Source of the DNA: a virus
Lineage: Duplodnaviria > Heunggongvirae > Uroviricota > Caudoviricetes
Strand: one strand, 5' to 3'
Virus record (IMG/VR): IMGVR_UViG_2663762857_000014
DNA: 7,051 bases
A program made the position numbers and the translations under genes. The notes beneath the pieces are model-generated. The model had not been told where the DNA came from, did no database searches, and saw only the letters and a program-made list of their open reading frames with translations. Numbering within the stretch: the first letter of the stretch is position 1; each line of letters starts with the position of its first letter. Shown one piece after another: positions 232 to 7,051 of the stretch.

Positions 232-3200
232 ATGGGTAAAGGTGGCGGCAAGGCGCACACACCTCGTGAGGCGAAGGATAATCTCAAATCCACGCAGATG
301 ATGAGCGTGATTGATGCGATTGGTGAGGGACCGATAGAAGGTCCGGTGAAGGGACTGCAGAGTATCCTGGTGAACAAAACCCCGCTGACGGACACGGACG
401 GTAATCCCGTGATACACGGTGTGACGGCGGTCTGGCGCGCCGGGGAGCAGGAGCAGACACCACCGGAAGGCTTTGAGTCCTCCGGAGCTGAAACTGTACT
501 GGGCGTGGAAGTGACGAAGGCAAAACCGGTGACGCGCACCATTACGTCCGCGAACATTGACCGCCTGCGGGTTACCTTCGGGGTGCAGTCACTGGTGCAG
601 ACCACGTCAAAGGGTGACCGAAACCCGACATCCGTCCGCCTGCTGATTCAGTTACAGCGTAACGGTAACTGGGTGACAGAAAAGGATGTCACCATTAACG
701 GCAAGACCACCTCGCAGTTTCTGGCGTCGGTGATTCTGGATAATCTGCCTCCCCGTCCTTTTAACATCCGGATGGTCCGGGAGACGGCGGACAGCACCAC
801 GGACCAGTTGCAGAACAGAACACTCTGGTCATCGTACACCGAAATCATCGATGTGAAACAGTGCTACCCGAACACGGCGATTGTGGGGCTGCAGGTGGAT
901 GCGGAGCAGTTCGGTGGTCAGCAGATGACGGTGAACTACCATATCCGCGGTCGCATCATCCAGGTGCCGTCAAACTATGACCCGGAAAAACGCACCTACA
1001 GCGGTATCTGGGACGGCAGTCTGAAACCGGCATACAGCAACAACCCGGCCTGGTGCCTGTGGGACATGCTGACTCACCCGCGCTACGGGATGGGAAAACG
1101 CCTGGGGGCGGCGGATGTGGACAAGTGGGCGCTGTATGCCATCGGGCAGTACTGCGACCAGACGGTCCCGGATGGTTTCGGGGGCACAGAGCCGCGGATG
1201 ACCTTTAATGCGTACCTGGCACAACAGCGTAAGGCGTGGGACGTTCTCAGTGATTTCTGCTCGGCGATGCGCTGTATGCCGGTATGGAACGGCCAGACGC
1301 TGACGTTCGTTCAGGACCGCCAGTCGGATGTGGTGTGGCCGTACACGAACAGCGATGTGGTGGTGGATGATAACGGCGTGGGGTTCCGCTACAGCTTCAG
1401 TGCCCTGAAGGACCGGCACACGGCGGTGGAGGTGAATTACACCGACCCGCAGAACGGCTGGCAGACCTCCACGGAACTGGTGGAAGACCCGGAAGCCATA
1501 CTGCGCTACGGACGCAACCTGCTGAAGATGGATGCGTTCGGCTGCACCAGTCGCGGTCAGGCCCACCGTGCCGGGCTGTGGGTGATAAAGACAGAACTGC
1601 TGGAAACGCAGACGGTGGATTTCACACTCGGGTCACAGGGGCTGCGTCACACACCGGGTGACATTATTGAAATCTGTGATAACGACTATGCCGGGACTAT
1701 GACCGGCGGACGTATCCTGTCCATTGATGCTGCCACCCGCACCCTGACGCTGGACCGTGAGGTTACCCTGCCGGAGACAGGTACATCGGCGGTGAACCTG
1801 ATTAACGGCAGCGGTAAGCCGGTGAGTGTGGACATCACCGCACACCCCGCGCCGGACCGGATACAGGTCAGTACCCTGCCTGATGGTGTGGAGACATACG
1901 GGGTGTGGGGACTCTCCCTGCCGTCACTGCGCCGTCGCCTGTTCCGCTGTGTCTCCATCCGGGAAAACACGGACGGCACCTTTGCCATCACGGCAGTGCA
2001 GCACGTACCGGAAAAAGAAGCCATTGTGGATAACGGAGCCCGCTTTGAGCCGCAGTCAGGCACCCTGAACAGCGTTATCCCACCGGCAGTGCAGCACCTG
2101 ACGGTGGAGGTGAGCGCAGCTGACGGCCAGTATCTGGCGCTGGCGAAATGGGACACGCCGCGGGTGGTGAAGGGCGTGCGCTTCAGTCTGCGCCTGACCA
2201 GTGGAAGCGGTGAGAACAGCCGCCTGCTGACCACCGCCATCACTGCCGATACGGAGCACCGTTTCAGTGGCCTGCCTCTCGGGGAATACACCCTGACGGT
2301 CAGGGCGATTAACAGCTATGGCCAGCAGGGCGAACCCGCCACCACCACGTTCCGGATTAACGCACCGGCAGCGCCTGCCGGTGTTGAACTGACGCCGGGG
2401 TATTTTCAGATAACGGCGGTACCGCGTCTTGCGGTGTATGACCCGACGGTGCAGTTTGAGTTCTGGTTTTCGGAGGCAAAAATTGCAGACGCCGCACAGG
2501 TGGAAACCTCTGCCCGTTATCTGGGGACCGGCAGTCAGTGGAGTGTCTCCGGCCCGCACATTAAGCCCGGAAAGGATTTCTGGTTTTATGTGCGCAGCGT
2601 CAACCTGGTGGGTAAATCTGCTTTTGTGGAAGCCAGTGGACGGGCGAGCAATGATGCTGCGGGCTATCTGGAACTTTTCCGGGAAAAGATAGGAAAAACG
2701 CATCTGGCAGAGGCGCTGTGGGCAGAGATTGACAACAGTCAGCTGAAGGACGAGATGGCGGAAATGCAGACCACCATCACAGAAACCCGCAATGAAATCA
2801 CACAGACGGTCAGTAAAACGCTGGAGGACCAGAGCGCCACCATACAGCAGATACAGCGCGTGCAGAAGGACACAAATGATGACCTTGCTGCACTTTACAT
2901 GCTGAAGGTACAGAAAACAAAAAATGGCATACCCTATGTTGCCGGTATTGGAGCGGGGATTGAGGATACTGATGGCCAGCCCCTGAGCAACATACTGCTG
3001 CTGGCTGACCGTATTGCGATGATTAACCCGGAGGACGGCAACACCACGCCGTTATTTGTGGCGCAGGGGAATCAGTTGTTCATGAACGATGTGTTCCTGA
3101 AGCGGCTGTTTGCGGTGAGTATCACCTCGTCCGGCAATCCCCCTACGTTCTCCCTGACGCCGGAAGGCAGGCTGACGGCCCGTAATGCGGATATCAGCGG

Positions 3201-3762
3201 ACATATCAGTGCGAACTCGGGCACGCTGAATAATGTCGTGATAGCGGAGAACTGTACCATCAAAGGTACTCTGAGAGCGGAAAATATCATTGGCGATGTG
3301 GTGAAAACGCACAATGTCAGTCTTCCTGATCTCAGGGCTGCAGGGGAGCACAGACACGCGACAGAACGAACGGTTACTGTCATTGATGATCAGTCGTTTG
3401 ACCGGAATATTGTTATCCCGCCGGTTTTTTATTCCGGTATTATCTACAAAGGAAGTGATGGTGACGGTGCGACCTCAATCTGTACGCTGACGGTGAGTGT
3501 GAATGATCGGGTGGTGTTCAGCAAAACCTCATCCATCGGTACCAGGCGTACGTCAGGGGGATACCCCGTTCAGGAAGACACCATATATCCCGGGTCATCC
3601 ACTCCGTTCAGCTATTTCATGAGGATGGCGTCAGGGGGAGGTGATGTCAGGATCAAGTTCCGGATTGAGGTCATCTATTATGGAACTGCACCGGGTTTTA
3701 TGACCACAGGGATACAGATCACAACGATGAAGGCGTCAGCTTCAGGATTTGTGGAAAGTTAA
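232..3762 (+). CDS. J: Lambda J-like central tail fibre / host specificity protein (tail tip), 1176 aa
   Basis: 3531-nt ORF with ATG at 232 and Shine-Dalgarno AGGAG at 223-227 (5-nt spacer). The N-terminus [39 protein letters not shown] and internal stretches ([39 protein letters not shown]; [30 protein letters not shown]; [29 protein letters not shown]; [18 protein letters not shown]) match what I recall of phage lambda gpJ (about 1130 aa). Antisense ORFs across it are explained by its length and GC richness. Confidence 0.95.
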
Positions 3763-4082
3763 TCCCGGACGATCGTGATTGCCGGAAGGAGACAAAAACC
3801 GCACAGTATGCGCGGGTGCCTTTGGCTGATGGCCGGAGGGAACACCTGAAAGCCTGATGTGAAAAGGCCCCGAGTCAACTTCAATGTTAACCCGAGGCCC
3901 TGATCCGTCTATCTTAAGCAAGTGGCAGGTTAGCGCCTCTCCGTAATAAGGAGCAAGTGCTGTGTCGCAAAAACCACCGTGATTTGTATCACTGTAGTGC
4001 TCATTATCTGGATCACCCACCGTTCACTGTGTGAATTCCGGTTCCGGATAGCACCTTTTTAATCCTGTAAACCACGATTTTT

Positions 4083-4118
4083 ACCGCAGACCGGGAAACC
4101 GGCACTGCGGTTTTTTTT
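4083..4118 (+). terminator. Rho-independent terminator: interrupted stem (ACCGCAG / CTGCGGT outer, CCGG / CCGG inner, GAAA tetraloop) followed by T8
   Basis: Read directly: accgcag-a-ccgg-GAAA-ccgg-cact-ctgcggt-tttttttt. The outer arms 4083-4089 and 4105-4111 are exact reverse complements, and the T8 run is 4111-4118. On the opposite strand the hairpin is followed by A-rich sequence, so it is unidirectional. It ends 13 nt before the Stf start codon. Confidence 0.6.
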
Positions 4119-4131
4119 ATGGGGAAAATCT

Positions 4132-5583
4132 ATGACAGTCAGAATATCGGGCGTGCTGAAGGACGGCACCGGGAAGCCGGTACCGGGATGCACCATTGAA
4201 CTGAAAGCCCTGCGCACCACGGAGACAGTGATTGTCACCACGGTGGCGCAGGGGCAGCCGGGGGAAACCGGCAGTTACAGTTTTGATGTGGAGCCGGGGT
4301 GGTACCGGGTGACGCTGAACACGGAAGGGTACGCCCCGTCGTATGTGGGTGACATTCTGGTGAAGGCGGATTCTGAGCCGGGAACGCTGAATAAATTTCT
4401 GATGGAACAGGATGAGGCGCAGTATTACCCGAAAGCGCTTGCAGAGCTGGAAGTGGTGGCAGCGGAAATCCTGAAGCGTGCTGAAGCGTCGGCGGCGAGT
4501 GCAGAGGAAGCGAAGAAACGGGCAGAGAATGCCCGGGGACCGGCGGGCGAGAAGGGGGACACAGGTCCACAGGGTGCCACAGGGGCACAGGGACCAGCCG
4601 GGGCAACGGGGGCGGTCGGACCAAAAGGTGAGCCGGGGCCAAAGGGAGAACGGGGAGAAACAGGTCCACAGGGACCGAAGGGCGATAAAGGTGACCCGGG
4701 CGGACCGCCGGGGCCGAAAGGTGACACCGGCCCACGTGGAGAGGCCGGACCACCCGGACCACAGGGTCCGGCAGGGCAAAGCGGCCCTAAAGGGGATAAA
4801 GGTGAACCCGGCGCAACAGGTCCGGCAGGTCCCGCAGGCCCTCGGGGAGAAACCGGCCCTGCAGGTCCTGCGGGTCCCGCAGGCAGTGTCGCCAGTGTTC
4901 CGGATGCCAGCACATTACAGAAAGGTGTTGTACAGCTGAGCAGCGATACCAACAGCGATGATGAAACAAAAGCGGCAACCCCAAAGGCTGTGAAAGCGGT
5001 AATGGCAGAAGTGCAGGCAGCAAAAACGAAGGCAGAAGAGGCAGCAACCCGGGCAGCAGTCCCCGGACCGAAGGGGGACAGGGGGGAACCTGGCGCACCT
5101 GGTGCAGTGGGGCCCGCAGGCCCACGGGGACCGGCTGGTGCAGCTGGTCCCAAAGGTGATGCAGGCCCGGCCGGACCCCGGGGTCAAAAAGGTGATACAG
5201 GACCTGCAGGTCCGCAGGGACCAGCTGGCCCGGCAGGCCCACAGGGGGTTGCCGGAAGGGACGGCAATGTTTCCACCGGGAAATATGCGGTTGGTTCTTA
5301 TGTTTTTGGCGTGTCCTCTGTCTATGCTGACGGCGAAGGCTTATTTTCATCAGGGATATATGAAAACATTCAGGGTAGCTCCATTGATCTGATTTCAATA
5401 CAGACAACACAAACAGGCGCATCAACACCAAATCAAATCTGGTTTTTGAAACTGGAGGAGGACATTCCGGGGGTGTGGCGGGCATTTAAACCCGCCGCAT
5501 ATATTGATCTGATGCCAGAAGGAATGCAAGGAGGAAAGAACTCGATGTTTAACTTTATTACTCTTTTCCAGCGGATAGCGTAA
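4132..5583 (+). CDS. stf: Side tail fibre protein (lambda Stf-like N-terminus) with collagen-like Gly-X-Y shaft, 483 aa
   Basis: ATG at 4132 with GGGGA 7-8 nt upstream. The N-terminus [26 protein letters not shown] closely resembles the lambda Stf N-terminus as I recall it ([26 protein letters not shown]). The motif [28 protein letters not shown] (aa 264-291) matches the conserved tail-fibre motif KGIVQLSSATNS...AATPKAVK. Two long G-X-Y runs occupy aa 136-251 and 311-377. A non-repetitive C-terminal domain of about 105 aa follows. Confidence 0.9.
4537..4884 (+). repeat. Collagen-like Gly-X-Y coding repeat block 1 within stf (about 38 triplets, one register break at [12 protein letters not shown])
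   Basis: Translation [116 protein letters not shown]. The DNA is a GC-rich 9-bp-periodic repeat, which explains the long stop-free antisense and out-of-frame ORFs in the track. Confidence 0.9.
5065..5262 (+). repeat. Collagen-like Gly-X-Y coding repeat block 2 within stf (about 22 triplets)
   Basis: Translation [68 protein letters not shown], immediately after the conserved KGVVQLSS...TPKAVK motif and an Ala/Lys-rich linker. Confidence 0.9.
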
Positions 5584-5594
5584 CGAGGTACGGC

Positions 5595-6188
5595 ATGATA
5601 ATAGCGATCAGTGCGGTTAAGGATCCGGTATATACCAGGCAGGGATGTATCAACTGTCTGGTGAAACTCACCGGAGTTGACGAGGAGGAGACGGACTGGC
5701 TTCCGTTTACGGCGACACCAACGGACGAAGCCCCTCATGGAAAAGAACTCTGGCAGGCACTGAACTCAGGTCAATATGGTCAAATCGCGCCGTATACTCA
5801 ACCGGAAGATGCGGTGGAAAAAGCCAGACAACAGAAAATTAATGAGATCAACGCCTGGCGTAATTCGATGGAAGCGGCGAACTACACGTTTGAGCACAAT
5901 GGGCGTAAATGGGACTACGGGAAGTCAACGCAGACGCGTCTTGAGCCGTCGGTGGCGGCAGCGAAAGCGGGGAAACTGCCGGAGGCGTTTTTCTGGACGG
6001 ATGCGGACAATAATGACGTACCGATGGACGCTGAAACACTGATTGCTCTGAGTGCTGCTGCAGAGCAGGCGATGTTTACCAAAGGTCTGGAAATTCATGT
6101 CAGACAGCGCACGATGAAAAAAGAGATTGAAGCGCTGGATGATGCGGAAGCTATACTGGCGTATAAGGTCGGCATGGCTGACAGGTGA
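5595..6188 (+). CDS. Putative tail fibre assembly protein / chaperone (Tfa-like by position), 197 aa
   Basis: ATG at 5595 with GAGG at 5586-5589 (5-nt spacer), 11 nt after the stf stop. Its size and position directly downstream of the side tail fibre gene match lambda tfa and other tail fibre assembly chaperones. I cannot confirm family membership by eye, so the function rests on synteny. Confidence 0.75.
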   Translation: MIIAISAVKDPVYTRQGCINCLVKLTGVDEEETDWLPFTATPTDEAPHGKELWQALNSGQYGQIAPYTQPEDAVEKARQQKINEINAWRNSMEAANYTFEHNGRKWDYGKSTQTRLEPSVAAAKAGKLPEAFFWTDADNNDVPMDAETLIALSAAAEQAMFTKGLEIHVRQRTMKKEIEALDDAEAILAYKVGMADR

Positions 6189-6213
6189 AAAAAAGAGGGG
6201 CGCTCCAGCCCCT
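6188..6213 (-). terminator. Intrinsic terminator-like hairpin abutting the tfa stop; canonical for leftward (minus-strand) transcription, possibly a weak bidirectional terminator
   Basis: Plus strand reads A7 (6188-6194), g, AGGGGC (6196-6201), 6-nt loop, GCCCCT (6208-6213). On the minus strand this is a 6-bp GC-rich stem followed by cTTTTTTT. On the plus strand the hairpin is followed by ttgctac, a poor U-tract. Confidence 0.5.
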
Positions 6214-6415
6214 TGCTACAAAGCTATGGCTAAATAAAGAATACTCAGGTCGAGGAAATAATCTGGCAATGATAATTAAAGGAGATGCAACGGCCTCCTT
6301 CACCCCTGTCAAAGATAAAAAACTGGGGAGTGCGTGCTCACCGAGAGCATGATACTTGTGGTTGATAGTTATTTTTATCCGGCGACAAAGATATTGAGAT
6401 GAGGGCGCGGATGCA

Positions 6416-6431
6416 ATACAGAATTTTCGTA
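6416..6431. repeat. Copy 1 of an exact 16-bp direct repeat ATACAGAATTTTCGTA, lying inside the 8-bp-arm inverted repeat ATGCAATA / TATTGCAT (6411-6437)
   Basis: Read directly; the second copy is at 6593-6608. Flanks differ immediately outside the 16 bp. Confidence 0.85.
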
Positions 6432-6484
6432 TTGCATGGTAACTGCTGATTCCTGAAACTGAAAGTCGTCATGAAACTGTAAGC

Positions 6485-6512
6485 GAAAAAACGGGGAGAC
6501 GGCACGCTCCCC
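6485..6512 (-). terminator. Intrinsic terminator oriented for minus-strand transcription
   Basis: Plus strand reads A6 (6486-6491), c, GGGGAG (6493-6498), 8-nt loop acggcacg, CTCCCC (6507-6512). The minus-strand transcript would be GGGGAG-loop-CUCCCC-G-UUUUUU. No U-tract follows the hairpin on the plus strand. Confidence 0.5.
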
Positions 6513-6592
6513 AAGGTCATACATGAGATAGTGGTGTTTTTATAGTCGAAAGAATAATTGCATAAAAAGAGTGTAAATTAAACATTCAGGGG

Positions 6593-6608
6593 ATACAGAA
6601 TTTTCGTA
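6593..6608. repeat. Copy 2 of the exact 16-bp direct repeat ATACAGAATTTTCGTA
   Basis: Identical to 6416-6431, 177 bp downstream. A weakly similar attgc..ctgaaa stretch follows both copies. Confidence 0.85.
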
Positions 6609-6644
6609 GGCTGAGGGATTGCTGAAAATAATTTAGTGCGTCCT

Positions 6645-6666
6645 TCAATGGTCATTCAATGGTCAT
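6645..6666. repeat. Perfect tandem duplication of an 11-bp unit (TCAATGGTCAT x2)
   Basis: Read directly: tcaatggtcat at 6645-6655 and again at 6656-6666. An 8-bp-arm inverted repeat ATTGTGCT / AGCACAAT (6670-6699, 14-nt spacer) follows. Confidence 0.85.
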
Positions 6667-6854
6667 CAGATTGTGCTGATGTAAACAGTTAAGCACAATT
6701 TGATTATTTGACTTTCTTCTTTTTGTGACTAACTTCACAATTAAAGATGTAACCGTATACAAATTGTTGATGAATAAAGAGACAGCATAAGTGGCAGGCC
6801 AGTCGTAATGCGGATATCCCTTCGCGAACGTGATATCACCGACGTTATAGTAAG

Positions 6855-6892
6855 GAAATTCCGAAAAACTTCATATTAAAATTCGGAATTTC
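6855..6892. promoter_or_regulatory. Perfect 11-bp inverted repeat GAAATTCCGAA-N16-TTCGGAATTTC directly upstream of an RBS; candidate operator or 5'-UTR hairpin
   Basis: Arms 6855-6865 and 6882-6892 are exact reverse complements. AGGAG at 6896-6900 and ATG at 6908 follow. A perfect 10-bp palindrome GTGATATCAC lies at 6830-6839, and a possible -10 TATAGT at 6846-6851. Confidence 0.4.
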
Positions 6893-6907
6893 TTCAGGAG
6901 TAAGCTC

Positions 6908-6985
6908 ATGAGAGCGGCGAGACATCAGATTTTCTTTATATATCCGATGTTGAGTTGTTTTATTTGTATACAGATAATTTTATAG
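6908..6985 (+). CDS. Hypothetical small ORF, 25 aa, hydrophobic (MRAARHQIFFIYPMLSCFICIQIIL); possible small membrane peptide or leader peptide
   Basis: ATG at 6908 preceded by AGGAG at 6896-6900 (7-nt spacer); TAG stop at 6983-6985. Ends 10 nt before the next ATG. The call rests on the strong RBS alone; the ORF is too short for composition statistics. Confidence 0.2.
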   Translation: MRAARHQIFFIYPMLSCFICIQIIL

Positions 6986-6995
6986 GGTATACCAC

Positions 6996-7051
6996 ATGAG
7001 CAAGAAATTTGCAAATACTATTCTTTCTTCTGCTGTTGCCGGATTGATGTT
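6996..7051 (+). CDS. Possible 5' end of a gene running off the window; the N-terminus MSKKFANTILSSAVAGLM looks like a signal peptide (secreted, fimbrial or outer-membrane protein?)
   Basis: ATG at 6996 followed by two lysines and a hydrophobic stretch, the typical n-region and h-region of a Sec signal peptide. No classic SD directly upstream, so it may be translationally coupled to the small ORF. Only 18 codons are visible. Confidence 0.3.
   Translation, partial: MSKKFANTILSSAVAGLM

Follow-up and report, generated by a model that had tools for sequence, protein, structure and literature searches.

The hairpin at positions 6493 to 6512 of the viral DNA analyzed here (7,051 nucleotides [nt], the window), which we call T3, is a genuine leftward Rho-independent terminator signal. 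It lies in the spacer between a tail-fiber assembly gene and an eib-type adhesin gene, and it is a previously unannotated example of a known element class. The explanation that we favor, tentatively and with slightly less than even confidence, is that T3 is a redundant, allele-specific terminator of leftward noncoding transcription at the boundary between the tail genes and eib. T3 is an ordinary feature and not a conserved small-RNA (sRNA) gene.

The T3 hairpin and its genomic setting

The window represents the tail end of a lambdoid Escherichia coli prophage. The features that frame T3 are as follows:

232-3762, J tip-attachment protein
4132-5583, collagen-repeat tail fiber
5595-6188, plus strand, tail-fiber assembly gene (tfa, DUF4376; PF14301, E=2e-21)
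6189-6997, AT-rich noncoding spacer of 809 nt from tfa to eib (GC content, 35 to 47%)
6486-6491, minus strand, U6 tract following the T3 stem (read as A6 on the plus strand), where the RNA is predicted to end
6493-6512, minus strand, T3 hairpin, GGGGAG/8-nt loop/CUCCCC (ΔG of about -11 kcal/mol; terminator score d=16.4)
6998-7051, plus strand, start of an eib-type gene (first 18 codons; YadA C-terminal domain/immunoglobulin-binding adhesin), truncated by the end of the window

The assignment to the eib family was based on evidence that includes eibA in AF151091. Of 5,426 complete E. coli genomes, 27 contained the spacer, at 71 places in total (median, 3 per genome). In all copies it lay between a tail-fiber assembly gene and an eib-type gene (P-Eib-type lambdoid prophages), and nowhere else. 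The induced phages PhiR5 and PhiR12 also have it, as does the original record of P-EibA, in which the sole annotated feature of the spacer is a stem-loop approximately 105 to 140 nt upstream of eibA. RefSeq carries no annotation of the spacer region in any genome, and an invariant 25-mer of the spacer had no exact match in GTDB (one genome per species).

The 400 nt of noncoding sequence upstream of eib (6600-6997) showed a diversity (π) of 0.004 to 0.017, versus 0.03 to 0.05 in tfa coding sequence (5900-6100), and were far better conserved than the eib body, which beyond the signal peptide is 73 to 84% identical or unalignable. This low diversity suggests either constraint or homogenization among coresident prophages. 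In one genome (NZ_CP027340.1, 1-8039; copy L001), a near-identical spacer and eib cassette stand behind a different phage backbone, with an N4-gp56-type major capsid and a different tail fiber in place of the J/stf backbone of the window, and the conserved block starts within the last ~340 nt of tfa. Since the block is shared between different backbones, the cassette moves between phage types. Complementation of a deletion was achieved by eibG carrying no more than 168 bp of its upstream sequence (PMC13534694); the T3 region, ~485 nt upstream, is therefore outside the minimal eib promoter. The eibG mRNA has been reported to respond to static versus shaken growth (PMC4352079).

Elsewhere in the window, a hok/sok-like locus at 3800-4110 replaces lom between J and the tail fiber. 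It comprises an Rfam sok match at 3814-3973(+) whose 32.5 bits fall short of the gathering score (59), and a 27-amino-acid (aa) open reading frame (ORF) at 3979-4062(+) that matches positions 9 to 30 of the 42-position Pfam HOK_GEF profile with 25.9 bits; this ORF is without an in-frame ATG, which suggests a decayed hok-like toxin gene. On the plus strand, a strong terminator (d=40.9) was located at 4084-4110, and minus-strand terminators were located at 3815..3799 and 3899..3866. The tail-fiber protein contains collagen triple-helix repeats (Pfam Collagen, 4 stretches), as reported for collagen-like proteins from prophages of pathogenic E. coli (PMC3368898).

Read on the minus strand from 6512 to 6486, T3 is 5'-GGGGAG CGUGCCGU CUCCCC G UUUUUU-3'; on the plus strand, 6486-6491 are A6, 6492 is C, and 6493-6512 are GGGGAGACGGCACGCTCCCC. 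The stem is formed by 6 bp (five G-C and one A-U), or 7 if a U·G pair is counted, and two inner pairs are added within the 8-nt loop in the minimum-free-energy fold. The consensus scan recorded the site at minus 6513..6492 with 7 pairs, 5 of them GC, a loop of 8, and the tail TTTTTTCGCT. The hairpin energy of about -11 kcal/mol is accompanied by a local fold of -13.5 to -14 kcal/mol. T3 thus has the GC-rich stem (at least 5 bp, with a 3- to 8-nt loop) by which Rho-independent terminators are recognized, and a U-tract (G and then U6) lies directly 3' of the stem on the minus strand and not on the plus strand.

We computed a terminator score, d, position by position along both strands of the entire window using our own scheme of the d'Aubenton-Carafa type, in which a weighted U-tract term is combined with hairpin energy normalized per nucleotide. 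T3 scored 16.4 (nT=4.41) and was among just six sites with a d of at least 0 on either strand of the 7-kb window. When the spacer was shuffled 300 times with dinucleotide composition preserved, any site with a d of at least 10 appeared in 1% of shuffles and a d of 16.4 was reached in 0.3%, which places T3 above chance expectation. On the plus strand, the hairpin is followed by AAGGTCATAC, without a U-tract, and T3 is therefore not a bidirectional or plus-strand terminator; no plus-strand terminator with a d of at least 0 was found when the whole spacer was scored. An earlier reading of the sequence alone had proposed a leftward intrinsic terminator with a 6-bp stem, an 8-nt loop, and U6, and this is confirmed by the sequence, the fold, the score, and the shuffles.

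The same reading had seen no sizeable gene upstream of T3 on the minus strand, and this was borne out by our analysis, which found no coding gene there. The surrounding 809 nt are noncoding; as it had claimed, there is no minus-strand ORF of at least 60 aa in the spacer to the right of 6513, and the minus-strand ORF 6338..6520 contains the hairpin within its first codons and is not preceded by a Shine-Dalgarno sequence. The small ORFs of the spacer lose their start codon or are frame shifted between alleles. For example, the 26-aa minus-strand ORF 6845..6925 has lost its ATG in a divergent copy (L005), and its substitutions are all nonsynonymous.

T3 is similar to the intrinsic terminators of E. 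coli, including those arranged serially such as rrnB T1-T2, in its GC stem, short loop, and 3' U-tract, in a score within the range of real terminators, and in being one of several in series on one strand. It differs from them in that it is predicted only, with no gene or mapped transcript upstream, and is carried by only some of the homologous copies.

A terminator series and a duplicated module

The sequence-only reading had described T3 as the second minus-strand terminator. The terminator itself stands, but the reading missed that it is one of three in tandem and a duplicate of the middle one. The elements concerned are as follows:

6196-6213, minus strand, T1 hairpin, AGGGGC-UGGAGC-GCCCCU, then C and U7 (6194..6188); d=28.4
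6277-6302, minus strand, weaker leftward hairpin with 9 pairs, 3 of them GC (consensus scan, alignment)
6325-6342, minus strand, T2 hairpin, paralogue of T3; consensus GGGGAG-CACGCA-CUCCCC, then A and U6 (6322..6317)
6295-6438, minus strand, module M2, composed of a 16-mer, ~70 nt, and T2; tandem paralogue of M1
6416-6431, 16-mer ATACAGAATTTTCGTA, copy 1, inside an 8- to 9-bp hairpin, TGCAATAC...GTATTGCA
6470-6615, minus strand, module M1, composed of a 16-mer, ~80 nt, and T3 (local alignment with M2)
6593-6608, 16-mer ATACAGAATTTTCGTA, copy 2

T1, T2, T3, and the weaker hairpin are all on the same strand within ~330 nt. T1 begins 8 nt past the tfa stop codon, and in L005 its loop is changed while the stem is preserved; in the same copy the hairpin at 6277..6302 is stronger and has a U-rich run after it. 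In the window, an A at plus-strand position 6340, where nearly all homologues have C, breaks one pair of T2, such that the consensus folds at -12 kcal/mol and the window version at -6.8 kcal/mol with no hairpin.

We scored the terminators across 45 full spacers. T1 reached a d of at least 20 in 39 of these and T2 in 34 (d of 27 to 33), and T3 reached a d of at least 10 in 17, making it the least conserved of the three strong leftward terminators in the spacer. All three scored poorly in a few divergent copies of the L005 type. The combination found in the window, with T1 and T3 present and T2 absent, was shared by only one other of the 45. Retention of T1 and T2 with loss of T3 is the pattern expected of redundant elements in series.

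Alignment of M1 with M2 gave a local score of 50, compared to 18.6 ± 3.2 in shuffles, and a score of 41 without the 16-mer, compared to 17.2 ± 3.0. Because these scores far exceed those of the shuffles even without the 16-mer, we conclude that T3 is a tandem duplicate of T2. The homologous stretch that ends in the T3 hairpin is ~145 nt long and the duplication period is ~175 nt, with the D2 and D3 repeats of the two modules spaced at 177 and 169 nt; the two perfect matches of the 16-mer ATACAGAATTTTCGTA compare with 0.01 expected. T1 was considered as a third paralogue, which was unsupported since it has no detectable relation to the modules, and a fourth module to the right of M1 was likewise unsupported, the sequence further right being not detectably related.

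The core of the 16-mer, CRGAATTT(T)C, is also common to the arms of an 11-bp perfect palindrome, GAAATTCCGAA...TTCGGAATTTC (6855-6892), which lies ~105 to 140 nt upstream of the eib ATG and corresponds to the stem_loop annotation in AF151091. This shared core could be a protein-binding motif.

Allelic variation of the T3 region

We compared 54 copies of the T3 region drawn from complete genomes, phage records, IMG/VR, and gut metagenomes. The hairpin was intact in 21 copies (allele A), and one further allele A copy (L007) had a stem-breaking C-to-A change. Allele B, with a diverged 5' arm and two small indels, was unfoldable in 12 copies, its homologous site folding at only -3.3 kcal/mol, no better than shuffles. 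In the remaining 20 copies (allele C), a deletion of 114 to 117 bp had removed T3 and one 16-mer. Examples are strain 2015C-3121 and PhiR5_2 for allele A, 2012EL-2448 and PhiR5_1 for allele B, and ECOR-9 P-EibA and 2013C-3033 for allele C. Two intervals describe this variation:

6413-6529, segment missing in allele C (117 nt by window numbering, 114 nt when measured against allele B), flanked by GAT microhomology; its removal takes out T3 and 16-mer copy 1
6463-6592, hypervariable cassette, found as haplotype A, which has the hairpin, haplotype B, which lacks it, and recombinant forms

Throughout the 5,426 E. coli genomes, the segment 6413..6529 was confined to the spacer, where 52 of the 71 places had it, and so it is not a mobile element; insertion of a MITE-like element was rejected on the grounds of no dispersed copies, no terminal inverted repeats, and microhomology of 3 nt only. 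Diversity reached 0.09 to 0.13 in 6450-6600. In the rest of the spacer it was mostly 0.002 to 0.03, with one bin at 0.044 (6300-6349), and in the adjoining coding sequence it was 0.01 to 0.05, so that T3 falls in the ~130 bp with the highest diversity in a spacer that is highly conserved elsewhere. No compensatory pairs were found at the T3 hairpin across alleles, at a diversity too low for this to be a strong negative, and the hairpin was missing from the RNAalifold consensus across alleles.

As T3 is missing or unfoldable in 32 of the 54 copies, its role is not essential, and its dispensability in most relatives disfavors an important conserved function.

Two other origins of the hairpin were rejected. 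Fossil tfa 3' ends left by tail-fiber cassette swaps were sought by tblastn with eleven DUF4376 proteins against the spacer alleles, and the best match had an E value of 0.7. Membership of a hairpin family found in other phage contexts was also dismissed; the pattern GGGGAGC-N5-7-CTCCCC-N0-1-GTTTTTT occurred in 37 IMG/VR stretches, and similarity of the flanks was confined to Eib spacers.

Leftward transcription and competing explanations

Three same-strand terminators at the junction of the tail operon and accessory region are best explained by leftward transcription that needs a stop. From the sequence, we infer that such transcription is present and ends at T3. It would start in the AT-rich region upstream of eib, at one of the two promoter-like pairs listed here, or enter from the right:

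6703-6731, minus strand, TAGTCA-17-AATAAT (PWM score of 6.5, weak); start at ~6696, ~210-nt RNA to T3
6630-6659, minus strand, TTGAAT-18-TAAATT (score of 10.2); start at ~6623, ~138-nt RNA to T3

RNA polymerase would then pause on U6 as the GC hairpin forms and release the transcript at about 6486-6490, which in allele A prophages would yield a noncoding RNA of roughly 140 to 210 nt and keep antisense transcription off the tail genes. In prophages with a degenerate or missing T3, this transcription would instead be stopped by T2 or T1. T3 is the newest and most dispensable member of the series, having arisen, along with the rest of its ~175-nt module, by tandem duplication of the T2 module, and it would be free to decay because T1 and T2 in series make it redundant. 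In the window, T3 and T1 would be the working pair, because a point change cripples T2.

Minus-strand promoter prediction, suggested earlier as a check, did not bring out a good candidate: the sigma-70-like sites are weak or polymorphic, and none is convincing or conserved. A score of at least 10, as at 6659..6630, was shared by 16 sites in the window, and the scores of the candidate minus-strand promoters were matched by roughly 16 to 150 other sites. The pair at 6659..6630 exists only with at least two copies of an 11-nt repeat. The intramodule TATAAA/GATAAA common to M1 and M2 has no acceptable -35 element (2 to 3 of 6 matches by reading).

The 11-nt tandem repeat, GTCATTCAATG at 6640-6666, has 2.5 copies in the window and 1, 2, or 3 copies among homologous spacers, and its unit length is approximately one helical turn. 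Next to it is a 13-bp inverted repeat (6665-6677/6692-6704) with a T-rich run after it on the plus strand; the inverted repeat overlaps promoter-like hexamers that are face to face, plus-strand TTGACT-16-TAACTT at 6708-6735 and minus-strand TAGTCA-17-AATAAT at 6731-6703.

An alternative, which we regard as unlikely, is that T3 is a functionless relic, a decaying T2 duplicate that no RNA polymerase reaches and that is kept in allele A because the duplication or import was recent. The location of T3 inside the hypervariable cassette, its degeneration or deletion in 59% of copies, the stem already broken in L007, and the finding of neither covariation nor a convincing promoter are all consistent with such decay. 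However, the stem and U6 are perfect in 21 copies from different prophages and metagenomes, and the clustering of T3 on the same strand as the conserved T1 and T2 argues that leftward transcription matters at this boundary.

It is less probable that T3 ends an independent trans-acting Hfq-type sRNA gene, with each ~175-nt module a gene with its own promoter (for example, TATAAA at 6545..6540, giving an RNA of ~50 nt, or 6659..6630, giving ~138 nt) and the cassette supplying allele-specific seeds; we consider this quite unlikely. An orphan terminator with a U6 tail would suit such a gene, as would the retention of ATAAAAA, ACTAT, CATG, the hairpin, and the perfectly conserved upstream 16-mer in the duplicated module, and intergenic sRNAs that bind Hfq have been documented in lambdoid prophages of pathogenic E. 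coli (PMC4104026; bioRxiv 10.64898/2026.05.13.724894). Yet the -10 elements within the modules are paired with poor -35 elements, the corresponding position in allele B lacks a terminator, and the alleles give no comparative support for a structure. A trans-acting sRNA gene is expected to conserve its sequence and terminator, and the T3 locus does not do so (21, 1, 12, and 20 of 54 copies in the classes described above). A search of 6189-6997 against Rfam with permissive filters (E of 1 or less) returned no match, with AgvB, AsxR, Esr41, DicF, IpeX, and sok included; no tRNA or transfer-messenger RNA was found; and the fold of a 223-nt candidate RNA was no stabler than shuffles (z-score of -0.2). 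The Eib literature that we searched describes no transcripts from the spacer upstream of eib. The earlier suggestion of a short noncoding RNA is thus not sustained in the sense of a defined, conserved sRNA gene, given no Rfam match, annotation, covariation, or conserved promoter and an intact hairpin in only 21 of 54 copies. T3 may terminate a short noncoding RNA; an independent sRNA gene at T3 is possible but unsupported.

Compared with the Hfq-bound sRNAs of prophages (AgvB, AsxR, Esr41, PasA-D, DicF, and IpeX), T3 is alike in its intergenic position beside a moron gene and in its terminator with a U-tail, and differs in having no sequence or covariance-model similarity to them and no conserved promoter; its spacer also differs in occurring in only 27 of 5,426 complete genomes. 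Identity with the known sRNAs AgvB, AsxR, and Pas was rejected, as these are described in other contexts and with a far wider distribution in the literature. E2348/69, Sakai, and EDL933 are presumably among the 5,426 genomes, and if so, their sRNAs have no spacer homologue detectable by blastn. Terminators of Sok-type antisense RNAs are, like T3, short, leftward, located in a prophage, and without an ORF upstream. In contrast, Sok overlaps the leader of a toxin mRNA, whereas T3 has no toxin ORF, no overlapping plus-strand gene, and no Rfam match.

More doubtful still is an extended version of the sRNA proposal, in which the eib cassette carries tandem leftward sRNA genes, the A/B cassette encodes allele-specific RNA, and the 11-nt repeat toggles a promoter. 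Were it true, coresident P-Eib prophages (median of 3 per genome) would make distinct RNAs that tune eib or host genes.

Rightward late transcription, which in lambdoid phages is Q antiterminated, must cross the spacer, and the hairpin is equally stable in plus-strand RNA. T3 might on these grounds be an element of the rightward late-operon/eib transcript, such as a barrier to 3' exonucleases or a processing site, with A6 incidental. We consider this improbable, since three hairpins each have 6 to 7 A on their plus-strand 5' side, a run that serves as a U-tract for the minus strand only and whose repetition could hardly be incidental, since no terminator signal is found on the plus strand, and since T3 is dispensable in most copies. 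Finally, the idea that T3 marks the start of a small minus-strand protein gene (ORF 6375..6524, 49 aa, or ORF 6338..6520, 60 aa, which start 4 to 12 nt upstream of the hairpin) is hardly credible and was rejected: the 49-aa ORF is open in alleles A and B, the indels summing to 3 nt by reading of the alignment, but neither ORF has a Shine-Dalgarno sequence, the frame differs between the two indels such that alleles A and B have unrelated sequences over the first 20 residues, allele C lacks the start, and the terminator hairpin falls inside the first codons.

The favored explanation, a redundant and allele-specific terminator of leftward noncoding transcription, can be set against what is known of morons, which Juhala, Hendrix, and colleagues reportedly conceived as cassettes of promoter, gene, and terminator inserted between conserved genes of lambdoid phages. 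The T3 spacer resembles such boundaries in lying exactly where the late tail operon meets eib and in traveling with the eib cassette, but its terminators point away from the moron gene. Because they face away from eib, they are not the moron's own; that role belongs to the stem-loop after eibA (AF151091).

For now, T3 amounts to a routine prediction of an orphan terminator. Should leftward transcription end there, P-Eib prophages would make an unannotated noncoding RNA beside a virulence-associated adhesin gene, and the tandem terminators would form a transcriptional insulator between the tail operon and the accessory cassette.
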